Below are positions 4,977 through 60,611 of a DNA stretch of 64,000 nucleotides, piece by piece. The number at the start of each line of letters is the position of its first letter. The first letter of the stretch is position 1. A program made the position numbers and the translations under genes. Below the pieces are notes generated by a model. It was not told the origin of the DNA and ran no database searches. It was given only the letters and a program-made list of their open reading frames with translations. Source of the DNA: Cyanidioschyzon merolae. Taxonomy: Eukaryota. The DNA lies in the NCBI GenBank assembly GCA_000091205.1, contig AP006492.2; one strand, written 5' to 3'.

Positions 4977-5093
4977 TGACGTCTGCACTAGGGCGGGTTT
5001 CGCCGCCTCTACACCGCCGGTGACACCGTTTTTCTTTTGAAAGACGTTTGTTTCCAGGGGTGAAAGCGACAGAATCGGGACGTGCGTGCTGCC
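4977..5093 (+). ncRNA. Conserved structured non-coding 3' end of the Fanzor element (candidate omegaRNA scaffold / right end)
   Basis: 'ggcgggtttcgccgcc' hairpin, 'caccgccggtg' near-palindrome and the T-tract 'ccgtttttcttttg' are identical in copy B (reverse complement at 14707..14926) and partly conserved in C (26372..26463). Confidence 0.25.
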
Positions 5094-30380: not shown

Positions 30381-30462
30381 CCTATACGAGCGTGCTGCTG
30401 TAATTTCTGCTTTGAACCATTTTACAAGCGAGCAAGTACGAGGACACTGTTTCACGGAAACA

Positions 30463-31896
30463 ATGATAGCGTTCGTTATTAATTCTGCAACGAAGGCCGC
30501 AGTTAGCCCATTAAAAGGACAAATTTGCCGTGGTCTTCCGAAAAACCCGAGCTTTGCGGCGTCTACCTGGCTAGGGCAGGCTGCGCTCTCGACGCGGCCG
30601 CGAAGTTCGCAAGGGCGTGGGCGCTCCGGTGTTCGCGAAAGCGCAGCTACGCGCGCACGCGCTCCTGTTTGTGTTCAAACAAGTGACGTTGCTATGCGGG
30701 TCCGTTCTATTCGTGATTTGCAGGACGCTGAAATCCGCGGAAAAAGAGTGTTTGTTCGTTCTGATTTGAACGTGCCCCTTGATGGAAAGCGAATCACAGA
30801 CGACACGCGGATTCGGGCGTCCGTCCCGACGATCAAGTACCTCGCAGACAAAGGAGCAAAGGTGATCGTCGTTTCGCACCTCGGGCGACCCAAGGGCGGC
30901 TTTGAGGACAAATATTCCTTGGCGCCAGTGGCGGAACGTCTCTCGGAACTCTTGGGAAAGAAGGTTCGCATGGCAAAGGATTGTATCGGGGACGCAGTGG
31001 CGACCGAAGTAGCGGCTATGTCCCCTGGAGATGTTGTTCTTCTGGAGAACGTCCGTTTTTACCCTGAGGAAGAAAAGAACGACCCCGATTTTGCGCGCAA
31101 GCTAGCGGCGAATGCGGACCTCTACGTGAATGATGCGTTCGGAACGGCGCACCGGGCGCACGCGTCCACAGAGGGCGTTACCGCTTTTCTCAAACCCGCA
31201 GTGGCGGGATTCCTCCTCGAAAAAGAGCTGGATTATTTGTCGAACGCAATTGAGAGCCCGAAGCGTCCATTTGCCGCTATCGTTGGAGGCTCCAAGGTCA
31301 GCACGAAAATCGCTGTTTTGGAGAAACTTCTTCAAAAATGCGATACAATCATCATCGGAGGAGGCATGGTATTTACGTTTCTCCGCGCGCGCGGTCTGAA
31401 GACTGGTAGCTCGCTTGTTGAGGAAGACAAAATTGAGTTGGCACGAGTCATCGAGGAAGAAGCGCGCAAGCGGGGAATCGAGCTCCTCCTACCCCTCGAT
31501 GTTGTCGTCGCCGATAAGTTCGCCAATGATGCGAATACAAAGGTCGTACCAGTGGAGGAGATTCCGGACGGATGGATGGGTCTTGATAACGGGCCAGAGA
31601 CGACAAGAATGATCCAGGAGAAGCTTCGCACGATGAAGACTGTTCTTTGGAACGGGCCCCTGGGCGTTTTCGAGATGCCGAACTTTGCCAAGGGCACCTT
31701 TGCCATTGCGGAGACTCTCGCGGAGATCACTCAGAACGGCTGCATCACGATTGTGGGAGGTGGCGATTCTGTTGCCGCTATGGAGCAATCAGGTAAGGCG
31801 GACAAGGTATCGCATATCTCAACCGGTGGTGGCGCTGCGTTGGAGTTAATCGAGGGGCGGGTATTGCCAGGTGTAGCGGCGCTCCAGAGGGCGTGA
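30463..31896 (+). CDS. PGK: phosphoglycerate kinase with ~77-aa N-terminal extension (alternative start at 30694 gives a canonical ~400-aa PGK)
   Basis: '[16 protein letters not shown]', '[11 protein letters not shown]', '[23 protein letters not shown]', '[16 protein letters not shown]', 'GGGMVFTFL', 'GGGDS', '[10 protein letters not shown]'. Confidence 0.85.
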
Positions 31897-36551: not shown

Positions 36552-39110
36552 GCTCCTCCGCGGCACCCCACGCAACGCGCCAACAACGCCGTTCTGAACT
36601 CGAACGACGTCGAACGTGTACTGTATTGGCGACCAGTGCTCTAGACAAGAAGTCTCCAACTGATGTGCAGAGACCTCTCAGTTTTCTTGGACCGGCCACC
36701 TACTACGGCTTCCAACCTTTTCTCATATAATTCCACTTTGAGCGGTTGTCCCTTAAAATTCTCTCTTGTCAGCTGTGGAGGTTTTTTCTCCATCACCGCG
36801 CATCTCCTGATATTGATGGCGGTGTTAAAATCTCGGTTCACAAACTCCATACGTTTCTCGCCATTGTTGGTACTCACCAATGCAAGCAATCCTCGAACTT
36901 TCGCCATCCTTTCCATCTGCTCCTCCGTCAGCGGTCCGTATTTTTTTATCCTCAGGGCTCCTCATGCACATTCCTACCTCCACTCTCTGAAGTAGACACC
37001 CCAGCTCATGGTGTGTATACGACGTTCGAAACTCACCTACAGGTATTGTTACAAAGCGCCTTGCGCACTCCTTATACGCACTCGTCGTTGGAGCTGGCGT
37101 AGTTCCTTTTTGGGTCTTCCAGCGCCCTGCTCCGTATGCTACTACGAGCCTCTGACTTTTTTTATCCTCCTTCAAGGCGCTCATCTGATTGAAAACGTTC
37201 GCAAATGCCCGCTGCCTCTCTCCGTATAGACTCATACGCAGACGAGCCCACCGGGGCATGGTATACTCCTTCCACAGTGCGTCCCAATGGGCAACGCGAA
37301 CTTCCATGAATTTCCGAAAAGCAGTAAAGTCCGCTCCTCAGCTCGTGATCTCCCTCATAGCTTCGAGGTGATCCTTCATTCCTGCATTCCACCTCTCATT
37401 TGTCTTCCTTGCATTCATTATATCCGATTCTAGACAGTATCTCGCTCTCGAGAACCTCAAAAGACGCATGTCTTTCTGAGGTAAGTTGCCGTCAGTACCA
37501 TCATCCGCACGCTTGGGAGCAGCGATGGTTATGATATTCGTATTCCCAGGGACCGCGCCGACGACAAAGTCGTTATCTTGCACTTTCGGGGTCACAGGAC
37601 CCGCCTCCTTCTTTTCTGCATTCTTCGCCGCGCCAACGAAAGTCGTTATCCTGCACCTCCTGTGCCGCAGGATCCGCCTCCTTCTCACATTCATGGTTCG
37701 TCACGGGCGCAGCCGAGGGCGGGACTGGACGATCTCTCTTCAACCGCCGATAGTGTATACACAAGGCTACTCCATCGGTATCGATCATCCCAGTGAGTAC
37801 CTTTTGTTTGCTCACCCTCAGACGTTTGAAATCGAAGATATTCTTCCAGAACGTCTCCCGGTTTTCACCGTAGAATTCCTCCCTGCTAACATCGAACTCC
37901 GGACTGATCTCCTTCATGATGCCATGAAGGACTGCGGAGTCGATACTCACAAAATGTGACTTGATGGTGCACATCGGAACGATGTAGAAGCGCTTACCCA
38001 TCAGGAAAGCCTTCCGTCTGTCCCAGTCTTCAGTTTTCCCCACTCAGCTTCATTTCTGCCTTGCGTTCGAGTTCTCGGTCCAGAAACACGAAATAACATA
38101 GGATGAGGCGATAGTATCTTCCCTTATCTTTTTCAACGCTGATATCTTGTCTGTTGGATTCGGCAGCCCCATGACTGCACGGTGCTCTTGTATATCCGCA
38201 CGGATGACGGAGACCTTATTCGTGCTCTGGTTTGACGCCTTCTTGTCGACAAATTCGACGTCATCTTCACGCTTGCGATCGTTCGTGATGCCATTGATAA
38301 TCGCTGATATTCCTTTGGGACAGATGCCCGGGTAGAGTGCAAACAAGGCGCGTATCATGTAACGTTCGAGGTTCACTGTCAAATTGTTCTTCAGGTTCGC
38401 GGTATACTTTATCGCCCCGTATATGTAAATACCCCGGTCACCGCTTTATCGATTACTCTCGAGGCGGAATTCCGCCAAGTTTTCGTGGAGGGCATGCACT
38501 GGCTCATTTTCCCCCGCGCTTACTCTGTACCAAGCATCAGCTGACGAATAAACGTCGCATCGAAAACGCCGTCCGGGAACCTCGACCGTTTCCATGTGCG
38601 TCACTTCGCGATACATCTCCCTCGCCAAATGCATCAGTCCTGACGAGGCCTTGACAATACTCTTGGAGTACGAGTCGATACGTTTTTCGATAGCGTTTCG
38701 CTAGTGTTCCCTGTAAGGATCCTTGATATGTTTAAGAAGAAAGGTTTTCACCAGCATCTCGTTGTACGGTTGTAGTTCTTGCGGCCATCGACTTGGAATA
38801 TCCCCTTTTTGCGTTTTCTTCTTATGCTGTTCTTCTGAACTCGGTACTGTTTTTTTTCTTTTCTGGCAGCCAGCGACACTGGGGCGTCAGGATCGCCGAC
38901 TTGCTTTTTCATAACTTCCTTTTTAAGTTTTTATAAATCAGCCCTCCGTGAACGCTTCTGTTATATACTGAGAAAAACAATCGAATATTTTCACTTGAGG
39001 GTTGAAACACAATCGAACTGAAAACTATACATGCCTATGAAGTTAACAAAAATACAACTTTGACATTAGAGCTACATGCTAGATATCAAGATCACGTTTC
39101 CCTTTAACGG
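36552..39110 (-). mobile_element. Fanzor/TnpB-like element, copy D (5' leader truncated at ~39110 by LINE copy 2)
   Basis: 36641..38700 is essentially identical to 26464..28520 (copy C). 3' end is more diverged than A/B/C. Confidence 0.5.
36641..38760 (-). pseudogene. Fanzor (TnpB-like) ORF, copy D (frameshifted)
   Basis: ORFs 36641..36916, 36825..37307, 37338..37694, 37573..38043 and 38050..38382 match copy C. Confidence 0.55.
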
Positions 39111-39550
39111 CGGCATGTTTTTCATTAACAACGCGTTTACTTGGGCCAGCGTTCTCCGATTGTGCGCATTTTTCTTTTCTTACTTTTTGCGTTATTTTTT
39201 TACAGTGCGCGGTGGGGTATCCATCAACCCCCGTACCTCCACGTCACATTACCTATACTTCATCTCGGATATTCTGGTCATCTCATACGTCCTATCGTGT
39301 GCCCAGAACCTGTCCTAATTGTCCGCAATAGCGTCTTTACCTTTGGTACAGATGCATCATGGAGACAGAACGGCTTTTCTATACCACAAAGGGCGTCGGC
39401 TCAAGGTGCGCTTCACCCGACGTAGAATCGGGTCTCGTTGTCAGTGTGTGCTCGGACAGTCTGCGGATGCAGGCTTGTCTTCGCTGCTCGACACGCTGGA
39501 GAAACTTGACTGTTAGGATATATCGTGGGAGCCGCCTCTCTCTTTCGAGA

Positions 39551-40321
39551 TCATGCATGGAATGCGTTGTCGTCGGTTGGCAATGCGGGTTTGTGTTTGA
39601 CACCCATACAGAAGGTAGGCGCAGAGAGCACTGGGCCCGTGTGCGCATCCGATCCGCTGGACCTTCCGCCTAGAAGGTAGCACGTGAGTTTGTTCGCCAC
39701 TAATGAGCGCTGAGGCTCCGTTAGCGGACCATCAGTTGCCAGTGCTGCTCTCAAAGTGAGTGTCCGGCCCTCGGCTATCACGGTGATGCTCAGCTGCTGC
39801 TGTCCTGCAAGGAGCTCGCTGCGCTCCTGCTTCGAGCGCGGGCACTGTAAGCCTAAATATGTCAGCGTCTCCGGGTTATCGTTTCCGCAGCAGGAACAGT
39901 GTGACTCCCAGTGCGATTCCAGTGTCCCTATACGGCTTAGAGCCCGTGCTGGTAGCCAGAAGCCACCAACGCGGATTTTCGCGAGCCACTGGGTACCTCG
40001 AGCAAGCCCCGGAAATTCCAGCACCTCCCACCAGTACTTGCATGTGTATGCTAGGTTGTAGTTCCGGTATAGAGTCAAGCCGGCGTTACTGGCGCGACTG
40101 GTTCCGTGTCTACGTTCCCATATTGTTGTTTGGACCGTTCGCTTGAGGCGGCGGGAGCCTTGTACATTCCTGGGGATCGATTGGGGAGCGTGTTGTCTCC
40201 TAAGAGGCGCTTCAGCCCAATCTGCGTCGATTTCATCCAAGTGTTCTTGCGGTGCGTTCGGGTCTGCATGAAAATCCGACTCAAAGAGGTGCGCGTGGCG
40301 GGCCCTTTGGCCCGTATACAT
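39551..40321 (-). CDS. LINE C-terminal ORF with Cys/His motif, overlapping the RT ORF end in another frame
   Basis: 'ESHWESHCSCCGNDNPETLTYLGLQCP'. The same overlap arrangement is present in copy 3 (29070..29834 vs 28891..29310). Confidence 0.5.
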   Translation of the reverse strand: MYTGQRARHAHLFESDFHADPNAPQEHLDEIDADWAEAPLRRQHAPQSIPRNVQGSRRLKRTVQTTIWERRHGTSRASNAGLTLYRNYNLAYTCKYWWEVLEFPGLARGTQWLAKIRVGGFWLPARALSRIGTLESHWESHCSCCGNDNPETLTYLGLQCPRSKQERSELLAGQQQLSITVIAEGRTLTLRAALATDGPLTEPQRSLVANKLTCYLLGGRSSGSDAHTGPVLSAPTFCMGVKHKPALPTDDNAFHA

Positions 40322-42274
40322 GCCCGGCAGCCTGCTGCTATCGCTTCTATTGAGAGTATTTGGAGTTCAAGTCCGAGTGCCAGCGCGGTGGTTGCCCTGC
40401 TCTGCATTGAGCATCCAACAACAACGAGTCTCATTGCCCCGTTGGCGGCTGTCTGCGGACGCGAGGCATTTGTGTGCTTCATGCCGCACCACTCAGCACC
40501 CCAGGTCGCAGGCTGGGTGATACACATCCTTAGTGCCCTCGTACGAATTGCTATGCGGATAGAGGGGTCGGATGGGAATGAGCGTGCGATCGCTGTACCT
40601 CTATGCATCTTGGCGATCATCTCGTCGACGTGTGCCTTTTCGTCGAGCGTCGGCGTGAGACCGACCCCCAGGTAGCGATATTTTTCCACGATCGGGATTT
40701 CCGGATTCTGCAACCGCCACGAGCGATTGCGAATGCTCTGCGAGTCTCCATGGATGACCATGACGCCGCACTTCGATGCTCCTATGCTCATCTCCCAGCG
40801 ATCGGCCCAGTCGCTGACTTGTTGCATGCTAGCCGCAAGCGTTTCAGGGGCGGGTGCCAACAGCACGACATCGTCCGCAACTAGACGGCCTGCGAGGCGG
40901 TTCCTATGTGAGGGCTCCTCATCGGGCATCTCCACAGTCTATCCACGGCACCTCAAGCCCGTATTGTCTGCAGTTGTTCAGCAGATCGTTGATGAAGATG
41001 TTGAAAAGGAGCGGGGATGCGCGCTCGCCCTGCCGCAGTCCACGGCGGATTCTTCTGGAAGGGGTTCTTGAGCTGTCGCCCAGTCGGATGCGCATCCATG
41101 AGTCTGCATAGAGCGCACGGAAGAACGCTAAGCACTTTCCGGAGACTCCGGCGCGTTCCATCTTCAGAAATGGAGCCTCGTGCGGGACCGTGTCAAAGGC
41201 CTTTTGAAAGTCAATGAAGCATACGTAAGTTGGTTGTTGGCCGCTAATGGAGCGACGTTGCACCACTTCAGTTAGGGTCAGGACATGGCTCATGCACTCC
41301 TCGTGGCTCCGGAATCCAGCCTGTTCTGGGGCGAAGAACTTGCGTTCCTGGAGGCCTCTCTGGATCCGGTTCGTGGGAATGGCGCAAAGTAGCTTCATGA
41401 TTGACGGGATGAGGCGCATAGAGCGGTAGTTGTTCATGTCTGTGTGGGAGTCCTTTTTGAGGATCGGTACGACCTCAGCAGTCCTCCATACATCCGGGAT
41501 GTACGCCTCTTCGAACATGCGTTGGATGAGCTCCACAAGGCGTTTGCCTAAGCTTGTGTCAGATTCATCTGGTATTGATGGTGTCCCTGTTGTCCCGTCT
41601 TTTGGGGTCACCAGTTTCATCCACTCCGCAGGGATACCGTCGATGCCAGGTGTTTTGCGGTTGCATGACCTTAAGAGGGTCCGGACAGATTCAGGCCAGA
41701 AGATTGGGTCGTTCCATTCCGGTACCGATTCGAGGCGCGGTAGTTCTGCGGCATACTGGTGCCAATAGATTGGGTCTTGGCAGTGCCCAGTTGCTTCTTC
41801 ATGCAGCTCTGTGCCGTGGTCCGTCCAGGCCTCATTCACTGAGGCACGCTCCGTCCTCAGCGCTTCCTCATAAACGATTGGTGTGAGCCCCAGGCACTTT
41901 TTTGGTGGGTCCAGTCTCGGTCGAATGTAGCGCCAGGTCTCATCTTCGTTGGTGCTCTCTAGCATAGATTTCGCCAGGGAGGCGATTTCGCGGTTTCGAT
42001 CCTCTCGTTTGTCTTCTCTGGAAAGTTTCTTCTTTCTTTTGATAGCTTCTTCATGTTGCGCCTGTAGCGCCGTTAGGACTGCCTTCGCTTCCTTGTCTCC
42101 GGCGTTGACGCGTATGGCGGTGTGGTTGACGATCTGATAGAGTCGGTGGCGCTCGTCAATCCGGGTATTGGTACGTCGTTTCAGGCACTGAGGTTTGCAA
42201 CTGTTGCGTTCTGGTGCAAGCAGTCCCAGCTCTCCGGCAATCTTCTGATTCCCATCTACAAACTCGCGTGCCAA
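40075..42274 (-). CDS. LINE ORF encoding reverse transcriptase (two overlapping ORF segments, frame change near 40919..40935); no AP-endonuclease domain recognisable
   Basis: 'FIDFQKAFDTVPHE', 'LRQGERASPLLFNIF', 'LVADDVVLLAP' (FADD-box equivalent); only ~120 aa N-terminal to the RT. Confidence 0.6.
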
Positions 42275-44086
42275 TTGGTCTAAAGATTTGTATGCACGGC
42301 TTTTCGGATCTTCAGCGCTGTGAGTAGGTGACTTGGTTTGGCGACGGCTTTCTTGAGTTCCTGCTGGGGTGCTCTTTCGGGGACGACTTGTGATGGGCTC
42401 GCTGGAGCCCCCGCCTGTGGGCTCGTTCGGGAGTTCTTCTTTCTATTCTTCTGTTTTTCTCTTGCTGGTTTGCTTCTTCATCGGGCTCTTTCCTGAGCTA
42501 CATTCTCTGGTTACTTTGCATCTAGGTGGATCATGAGGTTTCTGTGTCTCCTTCTCCGTGTCTGGTTGGGTCTCTTTTCCTTTTGTACAGTCCTCGACTT
42601 GTATCAGTTCTTCATTACTGTACTGGTAATTCGATATCTCGTAGTTCAATACCGAGGCGATCCCACAAATATTCCATGATGCGAAACCTATCGAGTCGTA
42701 GCGCATAAGGGAATAGGAGTAACGCTGCGGTACTCGAGAGATACGTTGTCGATTGAGATGCACCCTCCACGGAGTGTGTGAGAGCACATGCCACCAGCGC
42801 CTCCTACATTCCAGTCGTTCACTGAGTGTCTGCCGCAGCGCTAGCGTAGAATCAGATGTACGCTAGTCAAGGTCGATTCAAATGCGACCTTTATATTGCC
42901 CGACGCTTTAACCTCCCCTCAACAATTGGGAACAGTCTGCAAACCACCCTTTCAGCGGCTACGTATCCGCTCCCCAAACACATAGGCGGGCAAGCCGCTT
43001 ATTCCAGCTTCGACCGCAAACATACTGCCAGCCGTCTTCCAAAGTATCCGCCGAAATTGTTCCCAAAGTTGAGGTAGGTACCCAAGGTAGGAGATAAAAC
43101 TGAGCCCGAGTCCGAGGATCGATCCAAGATTTGCGCCCGAACCTGCAGCGTTGATTCGGGAGGGGCGGATGACTAATCAGGATTTTCGTCAACATTTTCT
43201 GGTGCTACTGCCGCCGCCCCTCCGTTCGTTGCGCGGTCAAGGTCCCTGGCGTGGGCTTCCTTCGCCGTCGCCCAAGCACCCCGCGTTAACCCACTTTCAG
43301 AGCTTCTCCGGAAAAACTAGACCTTTAAGGCGGGCGTGGTGTGTGGGTCTTTAAGATAGTTGTTCTTTAATAAATAGTTTGCGACTAGTTTGTTTTGTTG
43401 TTTTTTTTTTGTTTTTTTCCGCACGACGATTTCTCTTTTTTGGTTACGAAGAACGTTCCATACACCACCGCCGTGCGATCATGGCGGCGTTTCATTGGTT
43501 GCGGATTGAACCGCCTCCGCGTCGTTGCACCATTCGATTCGAAACGTAGGGCATACGCGACGCCTGTTCCCGTCGGATGGGGACGTGTCGCCGGGCCGGT
43601 GCGGGTACCGCCCCGGGGATGTCGGCACCCAGACCCCGCGAACGGGGACGCAGGAGCAGTTCCCTCGAGCGGCCCCGCGAAATCAACAGACGACCATCGA
43701 TGCGTAATACGTGGCGTAAATCAGGTATGCAACCGATCGAAAGGATACCAAGTTACGACGGCGACGGTTTATTCACTGACGCCTTCTCCAGACCTTGGCG
43801 TTTTCCTGCTTCAATCCAGTTTAGACAGGGCGTTAGAGTTTTCACGGAGGGAACCTCGTCTATTCGGACCAGTCTGCTCTCTTTTTGGAGGGACAGGTCA
43901 AGATCCAGCGTTTTCCTGGCGTGTTGTGTTTGGGAGTGCGGAGCGCTTTCTGCTTGTGCAGTGGACGAAAGCGGCTTTTGGTTGTCTCGTCACTTTGGAC
44001 GCTACTGGAGAATAGAAGTCACTCGCTGTCTTCTACAGCTAGGAAACGCACTTATGTGATTTTATATTTCACTTAATAGGCAAATA

Positions 44087-47000
44087 ATGCGACCGAATAT
44101 GCAACGATTATGGAATATTTTTGCTCTCGGGCTTGTGCTGTTCCTTCTTGCGAGACTTTCGCAGACGCTTTTAATAACAACCGTGAGGGACGGTGAAGCT
44201 GAGGCTATAAAACGTTCCGCTGCTCGCCATGAGCTATGGGATGATTGTTCTCCGTTCAGGCGCATAGAGGGTTCTTGGGCGCGGAGATGGCGAAGTGTCG
44301 TTTTCCATAGGGAAACTTGCGCTCGCTTCCGTGTGACGGACAGAGAACTGGTGAGCGTCGACGGGGAATCTGACAGCTGCGGCATTTCAGGAGTATGCGT
44401 TAGCCCATCCACCGAACTCGAACGATGGTCTCAACTACCGGGGAAGAGAGTAGCGGGACACGGGGAAGTGTTGCGTTTCTCGAACGTTCCAACGCACTGG
44501 AAAAGAATGGACTGTGTCCACGGCTCGCTGAAAGGCAACAGCATTCCCGTTAACGTAGAAAACGGGAAATATTGTATTTTACCCGATGGACAGGGGTTCA
44601 ACGTGTTATCGCCTGCCGCGGAAATCGAGCGGAGTGAAAGTCCTGCGGAAACAGCCGCGGACGAACTGGGATCTCATGAAGGTACTTATTCATGCCAGCC
44701 TGCCAGGCAGGTTGTGGAACCATGCTCTCCCGAAAGAAGGAGACTGGTAAAGGAAGCTTCGGGAGTAAGCAAGACTCTAGGCAGCTGCTTTTCGACCTGG
44801 CGGTCCTGGCGGTCCTGGTGGTCCTGGCAGTTCAGGTACCCCTGGTAGTTCGGATGGTGCCGGGGGTCCCGGAGGCGGTGGCCCCGGAGGCGGTGGCCCC
44901 GGAGGCGGTGGCCCTGGTGGCGGTGGCCCTGGTGGCGGTGGCCCTGGTGGCGGTGGCCCTGGTGGCGGTGGCCCTGGTGGCGGAGGTCCCGCTTCAGCTT
45001 CCGCTTCAGCTTCCGCTTCAGCTTCCGCTTCAGCAAGTGCATCGTACTCGCTGAGCTACTACGACTCGAGGAGCGCCTCAGCCTCAGCCTCAGCCTCAGC
45101 CTCAGCCTCAGCCTCCGCGTCGGCGTCGGCTAGCGCATCGTACTCGCTGAGCTACTATGACTCGAAGAGCGCTTCAGCCTCGGCGTCAGAGTCAGCCTCA
45201 GGCTCAGCCTCGGCAAGTGCCTCTTACTCGCTGAGCTACTATGACTCGAAGAGCGCATCAGTGTCGGCATCAGCCTCGGCGTCAGCCTCTGCGTCATCTT
45301 CGGCAAGTGCGTCGTACTCGCTGAGCTTTTATGATTCAAAGAGTGCTTCAGCCTCAGCATCATCTTCGGCAAGTGCGTCGTACTCGCTGAGCTACTATGA
45401 CTCGAAGAGCGCTTCAGCCTCGGCGTCAGCCTCAGCATCATCTTCAGCGAGTGCGTCGTACTCGCTGAGCTACTATGACTCAAAGAGCGCTTCGGCCTCA
45501 GCATCATATTCGGCAAGTGCCTCGTATTCGCTGAGCTACTATGACTCGAAGAGCGCTTCGGCCTCAGCATCATCTTCGGCGTCGTCATCAGCCTCGGCGT
45601 CCGCAAGTGCATCCTACTCGCTGAGCTACTATGACTCGAAGAGCGCATCAGTGTCGGCATCAGCCTCCGCGTCTGCTTCAGCATCATATTCGGCAAGTGC
45701 CTTGTACTCGCTGAGCTTTTATGATTCGAAGAGCGCTTCGGCGTCTGCGTCAGCTTCGGCGTCGTCATCAGCCTCGGCGTCCGCAAGTGCATCGTACTCG
45801 CTGAGCTACTATGACTCGAAGAGCGCATCAGTGTCGGCGTCAGCCTCCGCGTCTGCTTCAGCATCATATTCGGCAAGTGCCTCGTACTCGCTGAGCTTTT
45901 ATGATTCGAAGAGCGCTTCGGCGTCTGCGTCAGCTTCGGCAAGTGCGTCGTACTCGCTGAGCTACTATGACTCGAAGAGCGCTTCGGCCTCAGCATCATC
46001 TTCGGCAAGTGCGTCGTACTCGCTGAGCTACTATGACTCGAAGAGCGCTTCAGCCTCGGCGTCAGCCTCAGCATCATCTTCAGCGAGTGCGTCATACTCG
46101 CTGAGCTACTATGACTCAAAGAGCGCTTCAGCCTCGGCGTCAGCCTCAGCATCATCTTCGGCAAGTGCGTCGTACTCGCTGAGCTACTATGACTCGAAGA
46201 GCGCTTCAGTGTCGGCGTCTGCTTCGGCGTCGTCATCAGCCTCGGCGTCCGCAAGTGCATCCTACTCGCTGAGCTACTATGACTCGAAGAGCGCATCAGT
46301 GTCGGCGTCAGCCTCCGCGTCTGCTTCAGCATCATCTTCGGCAAGTGCCTCGTACTCGCTGAGCTTTTATGATTCGAAGAGCGCTTCAGTGTCGGCGTCT
46401 GCTTCGGCGTCGTCGTCAGCCTCGGCGTCAGCAAGTGCATCGTATTCGCTGAGCTACTATGACTCTAAGAGTGCTTCAGCCTCGGCGTCAGCCTCAGCAT
46501 CGTCTTCAGCAAGTGCGTCGTACTCGCTGAGCTACTATGACTCGAAGAGCGCTTCAGCCTCGGCGTCAGCCTCTGCATCATATTCGGCAAGTGCCTCTTA
46601 CTCGCTGAGCTACTATGACTCGAAGAGCGCTTCAGGCTCGGCGTCAGCCTCAGCATCATCTTCGGCGAGTGCGTCGTACTCGCTGAGCTACTATGACTCG
46701 AAGAGCGCTTCAGGCTCGGCGTCAGCCTCAGCATCATCTTCAGCGAGTGCGTCGTACTCGCTGAGCTACTATGACTCAAAGAGCGCTTCGGCGTCAGCAT
46801 CATCTTCGGCAAGTGCGTCGTATTCGCTGAGCTACTATGACTCGAAGAGCGCTTCGGCGTCTGCGTCAGCTTCGGCGTCGTCATCAGCCTCGGCGTCCGC
46901 AAGTGCATCGTACTCGCTGAGCTACTATGACTCAAAGAGCGCATCAGTGTCGGCGTCAGCCTCCGCGTCTGCTTCAGCATCATATTCGGCAAGTGCCTCG

Positions 47001-50000
47001 TACTCGCTGAGCTTTTATGATTCGAAGAGCGCTTCGGCGTCTGCGTCAGCTTCGGCGAGTGCGTCGTACTCGCTGAGCTACTATGACTCGAAGAGCTCTT
47101 CAGCCTCGGCGTCATCTTCGGCGAGTGCGTCGTACTCGCTGAGCTACTATGACTCGAAGAGCGCTTCAGCCTCGGCGTCAGCCTCAGCATCATCTTCAGC
47201 GAGTGCGTCATACTCGCTGAGCTACTATGACTCAAAGAGCGCTTCGGCCTCAGCATCATATTCGGCAAGTGCCTCGTATTCGCTGAGCTACTATGACTCG
47301 AAGAGCGCTTCGGCCTCGGCGTCAGCCTCTGCATCATCTTCAGCGAGTGCGTCGTACTCGCTGAGCTACTATGACTCAAAGAGCGCTTCGGCCTCAGCAT
47401 CATATTCGGCAAGTGCCTCGTATTCGCTGAGCTACTATGACTCGAAGAGCGCTTCAGTGTCGGCGTCTGCTTCGGCGTCGTCGTCAGCCTCGGCGTCAGC
47501 AAGTGCATCGTACTCGCTGAGCTACTATGACTCGAAGAGCGCATCAGTGTCGGCGTCAGCCTCCGCGTCTGCTTCAGCATCATCTTCGGCAAGTGCCTCG
47601 TACTCGCTGAGCTTTTATGATTCGAAGAGCGCTTCAGTGTCGGCGTCCGCTTCGGCGTCGTCGTCAGCCTCGGCGTCAGCTAGTGCATCGTATTCGCTGA
47701 GCTACTATGACTCGAAGAGCGCTTCAGCCTCGGCGTCAGCCTCCGCGTCTGTTTCAGCATCATCTTCAGCAAGTGCCTCTTACTCGCTGAGCTTTTATGA
47801 TTCGAAGAGCGCTTCAGTGTCGGCGTCATCTTCAGCAAGTGCCTCGTACTCGCTGAGCTACTATGACTCGAAGAGCGCTTCGGCGTCAGCATCATCTTCG
47901 GCAAGTGCGTCGTATTCGCTGAGCTACTATGACTCGGTGAGCGCTTCGGCCTCTGCATCATATTCGGCAAGTGCCTCTTACTCGCTGAGCTACTATGACT
48001 CGAAGAGCGCGTCAGCCTCGGCGTCAGCATCATCTTCAGCCTCAGCAAGTGCATCGTACTCGCTAAGCTACTATGATTCGAAGAGTGCTTCAGCCTCAGC
48101 ATCATCTTCGGCAAGTGCATCGTACTCGCTGAGCTACTATGTCTCGAAGAGCGCATCAGTGTCGGCGTCAGCCTCCGCGTCTGCTTCAGCCTCGGCGTCA
48201 GCAAGTGCGTCGTACTCGCTGAGCTTTTATGATTCGAAGAGCGCTTCAGTGTCGGCGTCAGCTTCGGCAAGTGCGTCGTATTCGCTGAGCTACTATGACT
48301 CGAAGAGCGCTTCGGCCTCAGCATCATCTTCGGCGTCGTCATCAGCCTCGGCGTCCGCAAGTGCATCGTACTCGCTGAGCTACTATGACTCGAAGAGCGC
48401 ATCAGTGTCGGCGTCAGCCTCCGCGTCTGCTTCAGCATCATATTCGGCAAGTGCCTTGTACTCGCTGAGCTTTTATGATTCGAAGAGCGCTTCGGCGTCT
48501 GCGTCAGCTTCGGCGTCGTCATCAGCCTCGGCGTCCGCAAGTGCATCGTACTCGCTGAGCTACTATGACTCGAAGAGCGCATCAGTGTCGGCGTCAGCCT
48601 CCGCGTCTGCTTCAGCATCATCTTCAGCAAGTGCCTCGTACTCGCTGAGCTTTTATGATTCGAAGAGCGCTTCGGCGTCTGCGTCAGCTTCGGCGTCGTC
48701 ATCATCCTCGGCGTCCGCAAGTGCATCGTACTCGCTGAGCTACTATGACTCGAAGAGCGCATCAGTGTCGGCATCAGCCTCCGCGTCTGCTTCAGCCTCG
48801 GCGTCAGCAAGTGCCTCTTACTCGCTGAGCTTTTATGATTCGAAGAGCGCTTCAGTGTCGGCGTCATCTTCAGCAAGTGCGTCGTACTCGCTGAGCTACT
48901 ATGACTCGAAGAGCGCTTCGGCTTCAGCATCATCTTCGGCAAGTGCGTCGTACTCGCTGAGCTACTATGACTCGAAGAGCGCGTCAGCCTCTGCGTCTGC
49001 CTCGGTGGCAGCATCATCTTCAGCCTCAGCAAGTGCCTCGTATTCGCTGAGCTACTATGACTCGAAGAGCGCTTCGGCCTCTGCGTCTGCCTCGGTGACA
49101 GCGTCTGCCTCAGGCTCAGCGTCGGCAAGTGCGTCGTATTCGCTGAGCTACTATGACTCGAAGAGCGCATCGGCGTCAGCATCATCTTCGGCAAGTGCGT
49201 CGTACTCGCTGAGCTACTATGACTCGCAGAGCGCGTCAGCCTCTGCGTCTGCCTCGGTGGCAGCATCATCTTCAGCCTCAGCAAGTGCCTCGTATTCGCT
49301 GAGCTACTATGACTCGAAGAGCGCTTCGGCCTCTGCGTCTGCCTCGGTGTCAGCGTCTGCCTCAGGCTCAGCGTCGGCAAGTGCGTCGTATTCGCTGAGC
49401 TACTATGACTCGAAGAGCGCATCGGCGTCAGCATCATCTTCGGCAAGTGCGTCGTACTCGCTGAGCTACTATGACTCGAAGAGCGCTTCGGCCTCAGCAT
49501 CATCTTCAGCAAGTGCGTCGTACTCGCTGAGCTACTATGACTCGAAGAGCGCTTCGGCTTCAGCTTCATCTTCAGCAAGTGCGTCGTACTCGCTGAGCTA
49601 CTATGACTCGAAGAGCGCGTCAGCCTCTGCGTCTGCCTCGGTGGCAGCATCATCTTCAGCCTCAGCAAGTGCCTCGTATTCGCTGAGCTACTATGACTCG
49701 AAGAGCGCTTCGGCCTCTGCGTCTGCCTCGGTGTCAGCGTCTGCCTCAGGCTCAGCGTCGGCAAGTGCGTCGTATTCGCTGAGCTACTATGACTCGAAGA
49801 GCGCATCGGCGTCAGCATCATCTTCGGCAAGTGCGTCGTATTCGCTGAGCTACTATGACTCGCAGAGCGCGTCAGCCTCTGCGTCTGCCTCGGTGGCAGC
49901 ATCATCTTCAGCCTCAGCAAGTGCCTCGTATTCGCTGAGCTACTATGACTCGAAGAGCGCTTCGGCCTCTGCGTCTGCCTCGGTGTCAGCGTCTGCCTCA

Positions 50001-50789
50001 GGCTCAGCGTCGGCAAGTGCGTCGTACTCGCTGAGCTACTATGACTCGAAGAGCGCTTCGGCCTCTTCGTCTGCCTCGGTCACATCTAGCCAATATGCAA
50101 GTGCGTCTGTGAGCGCGTCTGTTTCTTTCTCCAGTTCTTTGAGTGCATCTGCTTCTTCTAGTGTGTCTGTTTCGAGTACTACAACTGGCAATCCTGTACG
50201 TTTGATACTGAAAGAGGATTTTTTTACGGGTGTTGCCTCTGAGTCTGCGTTGGCTGACGCGCTTCGCCATGCCCTGGAGGTACTCTTCGGTATTACTCCA
50301 CTGAGTTTTATTGTGAATAGTATGCGTGAGATCACTAAGTCAAGTATTCTTGAGTCGAACTTCAGGTTGGACGCAGACGAGTTTGTGAGTTGCATTAGCA
50401 GTGCGCAATCTCTGATACTTTATAATACGACGAGCGTCTGGGATGCCGATGGTTCAACGGCTTCGCAGATCGCATCGGGACTTCGCGAAGCGTTGAAAAA
50501 TGGCACACTCAGCGCCGAACTATCCAAGTTTTACGGCTCTCCAGTCTGTGTAGCGCCGAATGGAACAGTAACTATAGCCGGATTGGTCACTTCGAGCTCG
50601 AGTCCGCTCCCTGTCTGGGTGATCGTTATCATAGTGGTGCTTGGAACTCTATTACTGTCTAGTTGCTGTGCGCTTCTTGTATTCGCGGTGCGTCGTCGGA
50701 AACGACGACATGCCGCGGAGAGCGAAGCGCAAGAGGATCAGACAGACGCTGAAACGGCCGACACCGGAATAGATGACTTCGGTTTGTAG
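44087..50789 (+). CDS. giant Ser/Ala-rich tandem-repeat surface protein (signal peptide, GGGGP stretch, ~65 x ~26-aa repeats, C-terminal domain, TM anchor, short cytoplasmic tail); needs a frame change near 44747..44780
   Basis: Signal peptide '[27 protein letters not shown]'. Frame changes to the repeat frame, which is open from 44781 to 50789. C-terminal TM '[28 protein letters not shown]' followed by 'RRRKRRH'. Confidence 0.55.
44747..44780 (+). other. putative 34-nt GT-AG mini-intron (gtaaag...ctctag) joining the signal-peptide exon to the repeat exon; the alternative is a frameshift
   Basis: Exon 1 frame ends with codon CTG at 44744..44746. Removing 34 nt (34 = 3n+1) joins it in-frame to GCA at 44781, the first codon after the frame-0 TAG at 44778..44780. 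Confidence 0.3.
44860..44990 (+). repeat. 15-nt tandem repeat (ggtggcccYggWggc) encoding GGGGP x ~8
   Basis: Direct reading. Confidence 0.7.
44991..50100 (+). repeat. tandem array of ~66-102-nt (modal ~78 nt) repeats encoding '(SA)n [13 protein letters not shown]' units, ~65 copies
   Basis: Direct reading. Also generates long antisense and out-of-frame pseudo-ORFs. Confidence 0.9.
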
Positions 50790-52560
50790 TATTTATTTAC
50801 CTATTCGTAAATTGTACATTGACTGACGTAATCTCAACGTACTCTGCCTGCGAGCCAGAGCTCAATATAACATAAGAATTATCTCCAGTTGAGAGCATTC
50901 CCTTCAGAATCCAAGATTCTTTGTGCGCGCGGGTTTGGACGACGTCGATTGCCACGGTCACAGAGTACTTGACCCGTGTCCGACAACAATGAGACTTTGA
51001 ATTGCTCGTTCTGTTGTCGCTTTTCGATCCGTTTTCCAATTTCTACCTATACGGTTTACGCAACGCATGCACCACCATATTTGATTCCAGATTCGTTGGT
51101 AGAAAGAGGTTCCTCCGGGGTCGGTTTGGTGCGTCACTTTCGAATCTTTCCCACCGAAATCCGTTGAGTCTGCAGAATCAAGATTATCGCGGATCTTCGG
51201 ACGTCGGTCTATAAAGCTAACCTCACAATTATCCAATTCCTCAACACAAGGGTACATAATTCTGGTCTCCTTACATGTTGTCTGCAAATCAGACGCATTC
51301 TTCAAGTTTTTGATTTTTATGCAGAAAGAACTCCTTATTGCAAAAATCCGTGCAGGTTGGTTGACAAAGAATAGGACTTCCATGTCGTATATTAGCGCAA
51401 TATTCACCAGCTCATTCCGAAAGCTTGTTTAACCTTTTATGATACAAAACAGATCTCGTTCGAAGAACGATACCTTTTCGCCGAGGGGCAACATGCGAAA
51501 CGGCATTCCACAGAAGCATCATTATTCTCGCGGGATTGGCTTCCAGAGGCTCTCGTCTTTTCATTCTGCTCGGCGAAGAATACTGGAATCGGACTCGAGT
51601 ACTCACAGCGACGGCCACGTGTGGGGCGTTTATTGCCGATTTGCACGAAAGGAATATGGGCAGATTGAAATTCCTGTACATTTTCTCAAACTTGAATTGC
51701 CTTCCGGTACTTGTTTGATCACAGAAAAGACCCCGATCGAAGGCTTCTATCCGAAGAAAATAAAAAAACAGAGGAAAGTCCTGCTAGATAACCAAAGCTC
51801 TTCTTCGTGTGTCAACCGCGATTGAGCACGTCATGCGGGGCCTTGAAGAACAGATTCATGGAAGTGAATGCACGTTTCTATCCCTGAAGTCGTCCTCGTT
51901 ACGAGCTAGTGCTCGATGGTGATAGCGCTGTCGCTGAAATTGCCGTGCGGGTTGGTGCTCGTTTCGTAGGCTTCGTATATTTGTGGATCGCCGAGTTCCG
52001 GCGAAACGTGAAGAATAAAGATGACCGAAGCATAAATCGTAAATATTATATATACTTCTTGTTCATCAAACAAGCCACAGCACGCTCATGTGCACCAGCT
52101 ACGCCTTGGGATGTATCCCGTCGGAGTACCAAAGATACTCTGCAGCATCTCGGAAAAAGGTGCACTCCGCTCCCACCAAGGGGCGCCATTCCCTGACAGA
52201 ACGCCTTCAAGCACAGTTTCATTGGGTGGGCGCCCTAGCTTGCGATACGTTGCGCTCAGCGCTACTCTGGGACAGAGATAACGGACAGGTACCCTGGATT
52301 TTACTTGCTCCGACTCCATATGCAGGAGCCTATGGAAATCGAAAGACTCGCGTACTCAAAAACGACAATGAAGGGGAAGAAAGCGAAGCGGTTGCAGAAC
52401 GAGCCTCAAAGCGTGGTATTGATAGAGGTGAAAAGCGGATCGAAGTTTAGCATGCTCGCTAGAACCAGATGAACTTGTTTTCTAGCATAGATGGGGCCAT
52501 GCTAGAATGATTAGAATTCGGACGTCAAGTCACCGTCCGTTTGAGTGAGCCGCTCGGCAG

Positions 52561-54850: not shown

Positions 54851-55981
54851 CTAGTGCTTCTCCTCGGTAAGACTCGGATGCGGTACGAGGCCACTGAGAT
54901 AATTCGGCCAGCGCTTCAGGTTATTCGGATCGCAGTACCAGGTCTTGGTTCGGCGCAGGCCCTCTTCCCAGGACACCTGCGGCCTCCAGCCCAGCGCATG
55001 CAGCTTCGACGAGTCGATCCTGTAGCGCATATCGTTGAGGGTGCGATCTTTGACAAACTCGATGTGGCGGTTCGCCTCGGCAGACAGGCCGAAGAGATCG
55101 ATAATGTCGTGCACAACGTCAATGTTGCGTTTCTCGATCTCAGAGCCTACATTGTAGACCTCATCGGTCTCGCCACAATGCAGGATGGTGTCAAAGGCGC
55201 TCGCCGCGTCCTCGACGTACAAAAAGTTGCGTGCATGCTCACCAGAGCCGTGTACAAAGCAGGGCCGGCGTTGCGCCAGCAGACAGATACTCTTGGGAAT
55301 GAGCTTGTCGGGGAACTGGTGCGGCCCGTACACGTTGTTGCCGCGTGTGATGATCACCGGCAATCCGAACGACTTGACGTAGCCGCGGCAAATGAATTCG
55401 GCGGCGGCCTTGCTACATGCGTACGGGTTCGTGGGTGCCAGGATCGATGACTCTGTCTCCATGTTGCTCTCGCCGCCGTACACTTCATCGGTGCTGACGT
55501 GAATGAAGCGCCGCACTTTGCCGTACTGGCGTGCGCACTCCAGGAGGACGTGCGTTCCCAGCACGTTGTTCTCCGTAAACAGGATCGAGGACGTGAACGA
55601 GTTGTCGACGTGCGTGCACGCCGCAAAGTGGAGCACTGTATCGATGCACTCCTCCTGGAGCACGTAGAGCACCAGGTCATGCGAGCGGATATCGCCGCGA
55701 ATAAACTTGAAGTTTGGTCGGTTTGCCACCTGCGCGAGGTTGCTCAGCGACGAGCAGTAGTCGAGCTTGTCCAGTACCGTCACGCGGTAATGGGGATATC
55801 GACTCACGAGCCGTTCGACAACGTGCGAGGCAATAAAGCCGGCACCGCCAGTCACAAGGATATTCCGCGGCACGAAGCGCAGACGGTCGCCGTAGACGAC
55901 CCGCGCGTCCGAGTTCCCGTCGGGCTGTCCACCGGTTACCGACTTGGCACCGTTCGAAAGCGCCGTGCTCTGCGAGGACAT
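54851..55981 (-). CDS. UDP-glucose 4,6-dehydratase (RHM N-terminal-domain type)
   Basis: 'ILVTGGAGFIASHV', 'VLDKLDYCSSL', 'FKFIRGDI', 'HFAACTHVDNSF', 'RFIHVSTDEVYG', 'PTNPYACSKAAAE', 'ITRGNNVYGPHQFPDKLIPK' are collinear with plant RHM / fungal UG4,6-Dh. Confidence 0.8.
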   Translation of the reverse strand: MSSQSTALSNGAKSVTGGQPDGNSDARVVYGDRLRFVPRNILVTGGAGFIASHVVERLVSRYPHYRVTVLDKLDYCSSLSNLAQVANRPNFKFIRGDIRSHDLVLYVLQEECIDTVLHFAACTHVDNSFTSSILFTENNVLGTHVLLECARQYGKVRRFIHVSTDEVYGGESNMETESSILAPTNPYACSKAAAEFICRGYVKSFGLPVIITRGNNVYGPHQFPDKLIPKSICLLAQRRPCFVHGSGEHARNFLYVEDAASAFDTILHCGETDEVYNVGSEIEKRNIDVVHDIIDLFGLSAEANRHIEFVKDRTLNDMRYRIDSSKLHALGWRPQVSWEEGLRRTKTWYCDPNNLKRWPNYLSGLVPHPSLTEEKH

Positions 55982-58772: not shown

Positions 58773-60353
58773 TCAATCCGCCAGCATCCGTCTCGCCGAG
58801 ATCTCGATCTGCGACGCGTGCTGCGGAGGCTGCGTCGAATCGAGCGCTTCCCAGGTAAGCTCATCGATCGAGGAGTCATCGAGCGGCGTGGATTTCCCGC
58901 CTTCCAGATCCGACGATGTATTCGCCTGTTTGGCGAATGCCGCTGGCGCTTGTCCAGCACGCTGCATCGCCAGCGCCGAACGCTTCCACTCGTAGAAGCC
59001 GACCAGGCCCTGTCCGAGGCAGAACAGCATCGTGAAGCATATCGACACGGTAAGCACCGCGAGCGCGTGGAAGCTGTTATCGTCCCGTGTCTTTGCGATC
59101 CAGTCCGGGGAGAAGATGACGAACCAATAGTAGAAATCGGGGATAGAGCAGTACTGCGACGCGCCAATCTGCGGCGAGCAGATCGCCTGTGCAACCTGCA
59201 GCGCCAGCGCCAGGCACGCTACCAGCACGAGGCCTATCCAGCAGGAGCCCTGGAGGGCGAAACGCGCACGCGGCGGTAGCGCTGCATGGGATGCGCTGGC
59301 GGCACCTACACCGATGATCGCCAGCACCAGAGTCAGGCACGTCACCAGGATGCCGTTCCATGTCGGGCTGCGAGCGGCGACGACGAGCCCCACCACGGCA
59401 GCTACCGCCAGGAACGCAGTCGATACGAGGTACCCGGTGTGCATTTGGCAGAGTTTGCGCTCCAGGGTGCGTCGCTCAACGATGATCCAGAGCACGCCAG
59501 CCAAGGTCCAGTAACCGAAGTAGACGACAGTGGAGACGAAGGTCGGCGCATCCACGTATCCGAAGAGCTCGTGCAGCAGGTTGAAGAACTCGTTCCCGTC
59601 GTCCGCGCAGCAGGCCTCGGTGGACCAGAGCGCGGCATTCCACCACGGCCGCTGCGTGGATGGAATCGACTCGTCCTCGTTGCCGTTGCGCGTGAATGAC
59701 CCGAACAGGTTCGCTTTCTGGAGGTCCAGGAAGGCCGTCGACAGGAAGCCCGCAGCGAATGCGATCAGCAGCAGCGACGAGAGCGCGAAGAAGAGGCGCA
59801 GATCGAAGGCGAGCGCCCCGCGGTAGATTGCCCAGGCAACGACCAGCGCAACGGCCACGCCGACGGCTGCGGCGATGGGAATCGAGCTCCACGAGACACC
59901 GCCCGTGATTCCGAACAGGAATACGATGAGCTCGACGCCCTCACGCAGCACGGACGTGAAGACGAGCAGCGCAACGCCCCATCGGCCGCGCCTCGACAGA
60001 GCCCGCGCTATCCCGCCCTCGAGGTCGCGGCGCATGTGCGCGGCCGTGCTGAGCATCCAGAAGATCATCCACGTGATGAGCACTACCGCCACCAGTCGGA
60101 CAATGGCCTCGAAGAGCAGCTCAGTGAGACCCGTATACAGCTTCTGGCCGCGCGTCCAGAAAACGATGCCGAATGCGATTCCAATGACGATGAGCACACC
60201 GACGCCGGCTGCAACGCCCAGCCAGACGTCTCTGAGGTAGCGCTCATTCTTGGTACGCCGCAGGTATGCCAGACAGATCGAGACCACGATGCAGGCCTCG
60301 AGGATCTCGCGAAACGTAATGATAAAGCCTGCCAGTGAGAAGAGCTGTACCAT
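58773..60353 (-). CDS. FTR1-family high-affinity iron permease
   Basis: Two REXXE motifs ('FREILEACIVVS', 'LREGVELIVFLFG'), multiple TM helices and a long hydrophilic C-terminal tail. Start at ATG 60353. Confidence 0.7.
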   Translation of the reverse strand: MVQLFSLAGFIITFREILEACIVVSICLAYLRRTKNERYLRDVWLGVAAGVGVLIVIGIAFGIVFWTRGQKLYTGLTELLFEAIVRLVAVVLITWMIFWMLSTAAHMRRDLEGGIARALSRRGRWGVALLVFTSVLREGVELIVFLFGITGGVSWSSIPIAAAVGVAVALVVAWAIYRGALAFDLRLFFALSSLLLIAFAAGFLSTAFLDLQKANLFGSFTRNGNEDESIPSTQRPWWNAALWSTEACCADDGNEFFNLLHELFGYVDAPTFVSTVVYFGYWTLAGVLWIIVERRTLERKLCQMHTGYLVSTAFLAVAAVVGLVVAARSPTWNGILVTCLTLVLAIIGVGAASASHAALPPRARFALQGSCWIGLVLVACLALALQVAQAICSPQIGASQYCSIPDFYYWFVIFSPDWIAKTRDDNSFHALAVLTVSICFTMLFCLGQGLVGFYEWKRSALAMQRAGQAPAAFAKQANTSSDLEGGKSTPLDDSSIDELTWEALDSTQPPQHASQIEISARRMLAD

Positions 60354-60611
60354 GATAAAGCAAGGACTAGCGCGGTCGGGGATGGTATGCAAAAGCCCGT
60401 GAGAGTACTTTAAGAACACCGAGTGCGTTCTTTTGCAGAAAACGACCTAAACGTGAGTCTCTACGCCTACGTGCCTCTGCAACGGGGCAAGAATGAGCGG
60501 GAGAACAAGTTGGCGGATTCCCACGACGCTACGACTACCGCTACTGCTGCTGCTGCTCGTGCTGCTTCCTCCGATATTGATGGCGCACGCGCATGCTGCA
60601 CGCCAGCCGCC

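Follow-up and report, generated by a model that had tools for sequence, protein, structure and literature searches.

The window analysed here is a 64,000-nucleotide (nt) stretch of chromosome 10 of Cyanidioschyzon merolae 10D, a red alga (contig AP006492.2 of assembly GCA_000091205.1), which extends from gene CMJ300C to CMJ316C (CMJ301C, CMJ306C and CMJ311C being among the exact matches). Our subject is the region 44087-50789, which the original prediction, made from the DNA letters, had read as a single gene for a giant secreted or membrane protein with tandem Ser/Ala-rich repeats. We found that the region is not one open reading frame (ORF): the ORF list and translation resolve it into two overlapping plus-strand ORFs in different frames. 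The first, 44087-44848, starts with the ATG at 44087, stops at TAG 44846-44848 and encodes 253 residues that match exactly the "hypothetical protein" CMJ309C (BAM80399). The second, 44781-50789, is shifted by +1 relative to the CMJ309C frame (frame 1), is preceded by TAG 44778-44780 and closed by TAG 50787-50789, and its 2,002 codons encode a spacer, a repeat stalk, a C-terminal domain (C-domain), a membrane helix and a tail. For the predicted protein to exist, either 103 nt (44682-44784) would have to be taken out or 80 nt found in relatives put back; the former operation yields a stop-free joined model of 2,199 residues. In this model the first in-frame ATG of the second ORF lies only at residue 2045, and it is because the 6-kb ORF has no ATG of its own that it is missing from the 10D gene set. 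No gene model is given for it between CMJ309C and CMJ311C in the 2026 gene table (Data Set S8, PMC13353863), and its C-terminal 218 residues, searched against 5.8 billion proteins, retrieved one metagenomic cluster and no C. merolae protein of NCBI. It is the largest ORF of the window, yet it has stayed unannotated up to the 2026 re-analysis of a "100% complete" model genome.

In the translation of the joined model, all the predicted features are present and stand in the predicted order. The protein opens with a signal peptide (residues 1-26; 44087-44164, on the plus strand like all its other modules), which is borne out by a hydrophobic segment at residues 8-33 (Kyte-Doolittle) and by the SignalP-5 call "SP(Sec/SPI)" for CMJ309C (Data Set S8, PMC13353863). 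It is followed by a variable N-terminal head of about 170 residues (residues 27-198; 44165-44680) with six Cys. This head, referred to below as head A, is an orphan domain with no match in Pfam and no sequence match in PDB. The adjoining linker (44681-44780, frame 1) is coding in relatives, as it lies inside the continuous ORFs of metagenome contigs L009 and L008 and inside protein P0086, the 10D paralogue CMN009C. Beyond the linker, frame-1 translation and the ORF list show the annotated CMJ309C product to run into a 21-residue out-of-frame tail and its TAG (44781-44848), while the unannotated +1-frame ORF continues with a Gly/Pro spacer made of (GGP)3 and (GGGGP)8 (44790-44993). Among the relatives this spacer comprises ten GGGGP units in L009, takes the form (GGGP)n in L010 and is absent from L008 and L011.

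The stalk (44991-50078), defined with Tandem Repeats Finder and by motif counting, is an array of 1,696 residues (5,088 nt) consisting of Ser (48.6%), Ala (26.4%) and Tyr (11.0%) for the most part, with no Pro and a single Thr. Sixty-three motifs of the type YSLS[YF]Y[DV]S(K)S punctuate it, close to the roughly 65 repeats of 26 residues predicted, although the unit length varies: the 63 copies of YSLS[YF]Y[DV]S are spaced by 22 (21 times), 26 (10 times), 28 (once), 30 (25 times) or 32 (5 times) residues, with a mean of 26.8. In the DNA, Tandem Repeats Finder resolves units of 66, 78 and 90 nt as well as higher-order units of 180 and 252 nt that are up to 97% identical. All motif spacings are even, and one dipeptide phase of the array is dominated by Ser (778 of 848 positions, 92%), the rest being 63 Tyr, one per motif, and 7 other residues; the whole stalk is therefore an (X-Ser)n polymer, whose other phase is filled by Ala, Tyr, Leu, Asp, Lys, Val and others. 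Minor-allele counts among the 63 motif copies amount to 4, 35 and 215 at codon positions 1, 2 and 3, respectively, which places 85% of the differences at third positions. We conclude that purifying selection has acted on the repeat frame as a coding sequence, and that the array expanded and diverged while its amino-acid sequence was being selected for. Copy number varies strongly, from 63 motifs in 10D through 20 in L009, a short-read assembly in which this count may be collapsed, to two or three in the second lineage described below. That the unit has no recognised homologue was borne out: queries of three or four units, run against proteins, produced 8,000 word candidates, none of them at E ≤ 0.001, and Pfam, protein and literature searches detected no counterpart outside the family.

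The stalk gives way to a non-periodic spacer rich in Ser, Val and Thr and ending in SSTTTG (50079-50189), and then to a conserved juxtamembrane C-domain of about 145 residues (50178-50612), predicted to be alpha/beta. Together, the non-repetitive stretch between stalk and membrane helix measures about 180 residues; such a domain had been predicted, at a length of about 200. In the C-domain, two Cys are invariant and the sequons N108 and N128 are conserved down to 33% identity (alignment A3), a pattern in keeping with an N-glycosylated domain on the lumenal or extracellular side. No Pfam match was obtained for the C-domain, including none to SEA at E ≤ 1. Its AlphaFold2 model reached a predicted local distance difference test score of only 58.6 and no fold match; this is a low-confidence model, since the alignment behind it is shallow, which makes the fold searches uninformative. 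A single 26-residue transmembrane helix follows (residues 2142-2167 of the joined model; 50613-50690; Kyte-Doolittle maximum 2.81), then the basic stop-transfer sequence RRRKRRH and an acidic tail, presumed cytoplasmic, with nine Asp/Glu and no Lys or Arg before the stop (50691-50789), so that the predicted single helix and basic stub are both confirmed. In a PDB profile search the only matches were confined to membrane-helix and juxtamembrane segments of type I receptors. The joined model contains two hydrophobic segments in all, located at its opposite ends; a signal peptide and a single C-terminal helix with its basic stop-transfer are thus both present, with the two ends lying in different frames in 10D.

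The cause of this disruption emerged from the relatives. Head A has a paralogue in 10D, CMN009C (268 residues, 91% identical), and relatives on five metagenome contigs, with 91-94% identity across CMN009C and contigs L006, L008 and L009; in the protein search CMJ309C and CMN009C alone matched it. Contig L009 carries one ATG-started ORF of 1,115 residues with the module order of the window, i.e., signal peptide, head, linker, (GGGGP)10, 20 motifs, C-domain, membrane helix and tail, and L008 is uninterrupted from the head into the repeats. The junction alignment (A1) showed that 80 nt located between CTCTAG and GCAGCTGC in the relatives, and included in the L009 ORF, are missing from the window. 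The same follows from BLAST, where L009 5880-6696 corresponds to window 43966-44782 and L009 from 6775 onwards to the window from 44781 onwards. The junction thus falls at 44780/44781, where the loss shifts the frame by +1; a 2-bp GC is the sole microhomology. The segment is carried by L006 (from ENA) and by L008 and L009 (from two samples of the Joint Genome Institute), three mutually independent Cyanidioschyzon assemblies of environmental origin, each from a different sample, and the CMN009C protein includes the peptide that it encodes. This distribution indicates that the 80-nt segment is ancestral and was lost from CMJ309C of 10D.

The frame problem might have another solution, in which the originally predicted 2,199-residue protein is literally made in 10D, either by splicing of a 103-nt intron or by +1 ribosomal frameshifting within the 44781-44848 overlap (e.g., at TTTT 44790-44793). 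Removal of 44682-44784, which has GT...AG ends, restores the frame exactly, the 2,002 downstream codons are free of stops, the 10D transcript is present at 77-136 transcripts per million (TPM), and the known introns of C. merolae have grown from 27 to 39 and are still being discovered. However, the 5' splice site of this hypothetical intron (GTACTT...GGCAG) departs from the GUAAGU consensus of C. merolae (PMC8831791), and the segment contains neither CTRAY nor ACTAAC, although the ACTAAC(C) branch site is found in 27 of 27 known introns of this species (PMC2483917). The same segment is coding within the continuous ORFs of L009, L008 and CMN009C, and we thus rejected the intron. For frameshifting no stimulator is evident, and the 80-bp deletion fully accounts for the frame problem. 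Rescue by either route appears highly improbable.

We also considered that the break could be an error of the 10D reference assembly, the real gene having the 80 nt and being intact. The finishing paper described more than 20 kb of the earlier assembly as misassembled or incorrect, the locus is rich in repeats, and the downstream ORF is perfectly open. Against this, the missing segment is unique, non-repetitive and cleanly flanked, and the assembly is finished with bacterial artificial chromosomes and Sanger reads. Moreover, the paralogue CMN009C is likewise annotated short, at 268 residues, and its last residues, LPPRQ, correspond to SA-repeat DNA read one base out of frame, so that CMN009C may be broken at the same head/stalk boundary, as judged from the protein alone. 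Two short copies of this kind suggest real breaks rather than a single local error, and we regard an assembly fault as very unlikely and a real frame break in 10D as highly probable from the sequence comparisons. Of random substitutions in the 6,006-nt ORF, 6.9% would create a stop codon; on the assumption that no selection has acted on the ORF after the deletion, the event would be younger than about 0.72% divergence, a bound close to the distance between 10D and MS1 Ha3 (0.71%) and far below the synonymous divergence (dS) of 0.02-0.06 to the relatives.

The C-domain allowed us to follow the family further. It is 94-96% identical in proteins P0076, P0078 and P0079, and HMMER, run exhaustively over 1.84 billion representatives, returned these close relatives and one more distant protein, P0087 (33% identity, E = 2e-13), only. 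The P0087 cassette occurs at two loci, L010 and L011 (the latter encoding P0088), in each case as part of a single ORF with the plan signal peptide, head of about 310-340 residues, (SA)n, C-domain, membrane helix, poly-Arg (RRRR) and acidic tail. The helix motif "SCCxLLVFAV" and the character of the basic stretch and acidic tail are kept in P0087, and the stalks bear two to three copies of YSYSSYESKS-type motifs. L010 and L011 have heads that are related neither to one another nor to head A of Cyanidioschyzon (BLASTP E > 0.6); the 3' cassettes of the two loci are 99.5% identical over 1,433 nt. Pfam and PDB searches with all three head types gave no matches, nor did the C-domain or the repeat match either database. 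An (SA)n stalk whose aromatic-Ser motif ends in SKS, a C-domain with the Cys pair and NG[ST]/NxT sequons, the helix, the poly-Arg stretch and the acidic tail are found together in the window, L004, L009, L010 and L011. The neighbouring genes on L011 include a trefoil-like gene and, among eukaryotic ones, RabGAP-TBC and V-ATPase E; the trefoil-like gene and the eukaryotic neighbours fit a cyanidiophycean origin of this contig, and in our best reading the family is restricted to cyanidiophycean red algae. We hold it very likely that this is a real family and that its architecture is of the mucin-like type I kind. The originally predicted mucin- or adhesin-like surface architecture is hence found intact in a single ORF in L009 (1,115 residues), L010 and L011, but not in one ORF in 10D.

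The trefoil-like gene of L011 (1-620, minus strand; a weak Pfam Trefoil match) is separated by about 9.4 kb from the homologue at 10001-11866, upstream of which it lies. Genes of the trefoil-like type are a speciality of the Cyanidiophyceae; Hirooka et al. likened them to mucin-associated trefoil factors (TFFs). Since they are mostly expressed in diploids, a partnership with a haploid stalk protein is doubtful.

The ratio of nonsynonymous to synonymous divergence (dN/dS) differs between the modules, being 0.76-1.13 for the head and 0.43-0.72 for the C-domain. The non-coding DNA downstream of the gene (50790-51500) is 98% identical to L009 and L004, and the coding DNA of head and C-domain about 96%; coding sequence therefore diverges at least as fast as the flank, with counts too small for significance. 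The head dN/dS near 1, together with the short annotation of both 10D copies and the presence of long antisense ORFs in the array, might be taken to mean that the family is decaying or non-functional repeat DNA whose ORFs stay open merely through Ser/Ala-rich composition. Yet the third-position excess of 85% among motif copies is found in this frame only, the architecture and the C-domain are kept across lineages at 33% identity in intact ATG-started ORFs, the C-domain shows the lower dN/dS, and transcription is tightly phase-specific. This makes decay a highly implausible account of the family.

The last point derives from the recent finding that 10D is a wall-less haploid clone, natural populations being walled diploids (Hirooka et al., 2026, PMC13353863). 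In the published expression data, CMJ309C is at 0, 0 and 0 TPM in diploid MS1, at 13.0, 12.5 and 4.6 TPM in haploid MS1 Ha3, and at 79.9, 77.3 and 135.6 TPM in haploid 10D, with log2(2n/n) values of -8.2 and -11.5 (Data Set S8, PMC13353863). CMJ309C is therefore a transcribed gene whose expression is strictly haploid; the lack of a transcript, which had been named as a finding that would speak against the prediction, was not observed (77-136 TPM in 10D; PMC13353863). In turn, the suggested functional link to rhamnose synthesis and a GT92 glycosyltransferase encoded in the window is unsupported. CMJ313C and CMJ314C (dTDP-glucose 4,6-dehydratase and reductase) are diploid-biased, with log2 values of +4.0 to +5.5, and GT92 CMJ303C is expressed near-equally in both phases (PMC13353863); the rhamnose connection loses its support because those genes are diploid-biased and CMJ309C is haploid-only. 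A GT39 protein O-mannosyltransferase (PMT), CMJ319C, located just outside the window, is expressed in both phases (PMC13353863). The idea that the locus encodes a wall protein of the diploid, or a substrate of lysyl oxidase, and has decayed in a haploid laboratory clone was rejected, given 0 TPM in walled diploids and haploid-specific expression.

On balance, we think it probable that CMJ309C and the 6-kb ORF are the parts of a member of a new lineage-restricted, haploid-phase, mucin-like family of type I membrane proteins, recently frame-broken in 10D. Several observations weigh against this. The head and linker, with dN/dS near 1 and no third-position bias, fit relaxed constraint just as well as diversifying selection. 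L005 and L007, the nearest of the environmental contigs (97% identical), stop about 130 nt short of the junction. The absence of stops in the 2,002 downstream codons and the fairly abundant 10D transcript, in spite of a premature stop and a 6-kb 3' region, would also fit rescue by some unrecognised means. Finally, 10D mates with MS1 Ha3; as 10D grows and mates with a broken copy, the intact protein is dispensable for mating and for haploid growth in culture.

We propose that in the intact form the signal peptide would direct entry into the endoplasmic reticulum, and the C-terminal helix with RRRKRR would act as an anchor that leaves the short acidic tail in the cytoplasm (type I topology). The N-glycosylated C-domain of about 145 residues would then lie outside, at the membrane, and would bear the long (X-Ser)n stalk, an optional Gly/Pro hinge and, as an exchangeable part, a fast-evolving head that contains Cys. 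O-glycosylation of the stalk on its Ser face is probable, with the GT39 protein CMJ319C as the candidate enzyme, and would be expected to make the stalk a stiff, extended rod or brush that could reach about 0.4 micrometres (at about 0.25 nm for each of the 1,696 residues). Such a rod may coat the naked plasma membrane of the haploid cell and display the head for adhesion or recognition. The chances that the protein is a glycosylated surface stalk of this kind seem to us evenly balanced. A protective or adhesive glycocalyx role seems to us the most likely one, and a role in haploid cell-cell recognition is possible. In 10D, the recent 80-bp deletion would have left a secreted head of 253 residues, with its 21-residue out-of-frame tail, as most likely the sole product, and the 6-kb stalk-anchor ORF would be an untranslated yet intact relic.

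The composition of the stalk also admits a structural polymer of the silk or extensin kind in place of a mucin, in which (X-Ser)n beta-strands would be cross-linked through the Tyr and Lys that recur along it at regular intervals, e.g., by the cyanidiophycean lysyl oxidase, into a proteinaceous wall or matrix. The strict two-residue periodicity does resemble the (Gly-X)n of silk, each unit offers one Lys and three Tyr at fixed positions, cyanidiophycean walls have been reported to be 50-55% protein, and a secreted lysyl oxidase exists. But the wall genes, those for lysyl oxidase and FAS1 among them, are specific to diploids, whereas CMJ309C is expressed only in wall-less haploids, and the protein has a conserved membrane anchor and cytoplasmic tail. 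We consider this reading unlikely.

A bolder extension of the membrane-stalk reading would see in the family a surface system of the haploid or gamete-like phase, with variable heads on a constant stalk, in which heads are recombined onto the 3' cassette and indels switch between anchored and secreted forms. The first element is prompted by the unrelated heads that L010 and L011 carry on a near-identical 3' stalk-anchor cassette, and the second by the fact that both 10D copies appear broken exactly at the repeat junction. We deem it quite unlikely; if true, it would constitute a contingency- or antigenic-variation-like system, or one of mate- or self-recognition, near a chromosome end of a red alga.

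Among the systems known elsewhere, animal transmembrane mucins of the MUC1, MUC13 and MUC16 type share with the proteins described here a signal peptide, a very long Ser-rich ectodomain whose tandem repeats vary in copy number, a presumably folded domain next to the membrane, one membrane helix, a short cytoplasmic tail and a presumed barrier or presentation role, here at a naked cell surface in acid. They differ in that the algal stalk lacks the Pro/Thr/Ser composition (no Pro, one Thr in 1,696 residues) and instead follows a strict (X-Ser)n alternation in which Tyr, Lys and Asp take part, and there is no sequence homology between the two. The fungal signalling mucins and wall-stress sensors Msb2, Hkr1, Wsc1 and Mid2 are type I proteins with a Ser/Thr-rich ectodomain made rod-like by PMT-dependent O-mannosylation and with a short conserved tail. 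The type I plan is common to both groups, and C. merolae has an expressed GT39 PMT, CMJ319C; its stalk, however, is far longer, is haploid-restricted and shows no homology to the fungal proteins. The serine-rich repeat adhesins of bacteria (GspB, Fap1, SraP) are heavily O-glycosylated fibrils in which (Ser-X)n dipeptides alternate over hundreds to thousands of residues, mostly Ser-Ala, Ser-Val or Ser-Glu, with a non-repeat binding region. The long (Ser-X)n region, with 778 of 848 positions of one phase being Ser, recalls them, but the algal protein is encoded by a eukaryotic nuclear gene, is anchored by a membrane helix with an acidic tail and not by LPXTG, has no accessory Sec system and carries a Tyr-rich punctuation motif, so that any resemblance would be convergent. 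Sexual agglutinins (SAG1 and SAD1 of Chlamydomonas, Sag1 and Aga1 of yeast) are hydroxyproline-rich or Ser/Thr-rich and have no membrane-helix anchor. They resemble the C. merolae protein in haploid- or gamete-phase expression and in a fast-evolving head on a long shaft, glycosylation and surface location being presumed in the algal case; unlike them, CMJ309C lies outside the candidate mating-type region CMK076C-078C, and 10D mates with its copy broken. As far as sequence can tell, there is no homology to mucins, fungal sensors, serine-rich-repeat adhesins or agglutinins, and both head and C-domain appear to be orphans.

The family, hitherto undescribed, combines a stalk of strict dipeptide periodicity with modular heads and with expression in haploids only; it was missed by annotation and is frame-broken in the reference strain. 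A literature search for CMJ309C, CMN009C, the repeat motif and "Cyanidioschyzon" with "mucin-like" returned nothing relevant, and Cho et al. (2023) mention no such family. With this family, a first candidate emerges for a major component of the surface of the wall-less haploid cell, the recently discovered mating-competent stage, whose plasma membrane is directly exposed to pH 1-2. For the gene of the stalk protein, 10D would be a natural loss-of-function strain. As nearly all C. merolae cell biology has been done on 10D, such a loss bears on how far its surface, adhesion and mating behaviour can be generalised.

The surroundings of the gene are rich in duplicated and mobile DNA. A dispersed element of about 2.5 kb is present in the window in four copies, 72-97% identical, at 2338-5052 (minus strand), 14693-17208, 26379-28995 and 36616-39117. 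It is probably the 253-copy interspersed element of about 3.2 kb of Nozaki et al. (2007), and it likewise occupies the DNA upstream of the homologues in L008 and L009. Segmental duplicates of 95-97% identity pair 1-2258 with 41141-43399 and, in inverted orientation, 29003-30267 with 39118-40382. Amid them, directly upstream of CMJ309C, a reverse-transcriptase ORF (40919-42274; Pfam RVT_1) corresponds to CMJ308C, annotated as "retroelement, alive", which is transcribed (PMC13353863). Upstream of the gene, the sequence in common with the window extends for 120 nt in L009 and about 680 nt in L008, and the 5' flank is therefore a mosaic. Just 5' of CMJ309C, an ATG-started ORF of 160 codons (43577-44059, plus strand) has identical or near-identical calls in six metagenome assemblies (P0080-P0085). 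It matches no Pfam family, and 10D has no gene model for it.

On the other side of the gene, CMJ313C (dTDP-glucose 4,6-dehydratase; 54851-55981, minus strand), which adjoins the reductase gene, has protein-identical copies on other chromosomes (BAM80649, BAM81944), and CMJ311C has a 998-residue paralogue, CMQ009C, near another chromosome end; the 52-56 kb portion of the window thus looks like a part of a multi-copy chromosome-end block. Phosphoglycerate kinase (PGK) CMJ305C (30412-31896, plus strand) has its PGK domain only from residue 103, and the roughly 100 residues ahead of it could be a targeting extension or an artefact of a mechanically assigned TTG start. The FTR1-type iron permease CMJ315C (58773-60419, minus strand; Pfam) is expressed about 9-fold higher in 10D, at 117-141 TPM, than in MS1 diploids and MS1 Ha3 haploids, both at 13-17 TPM, which is a difference of strain and not of phase (PMC13353863).

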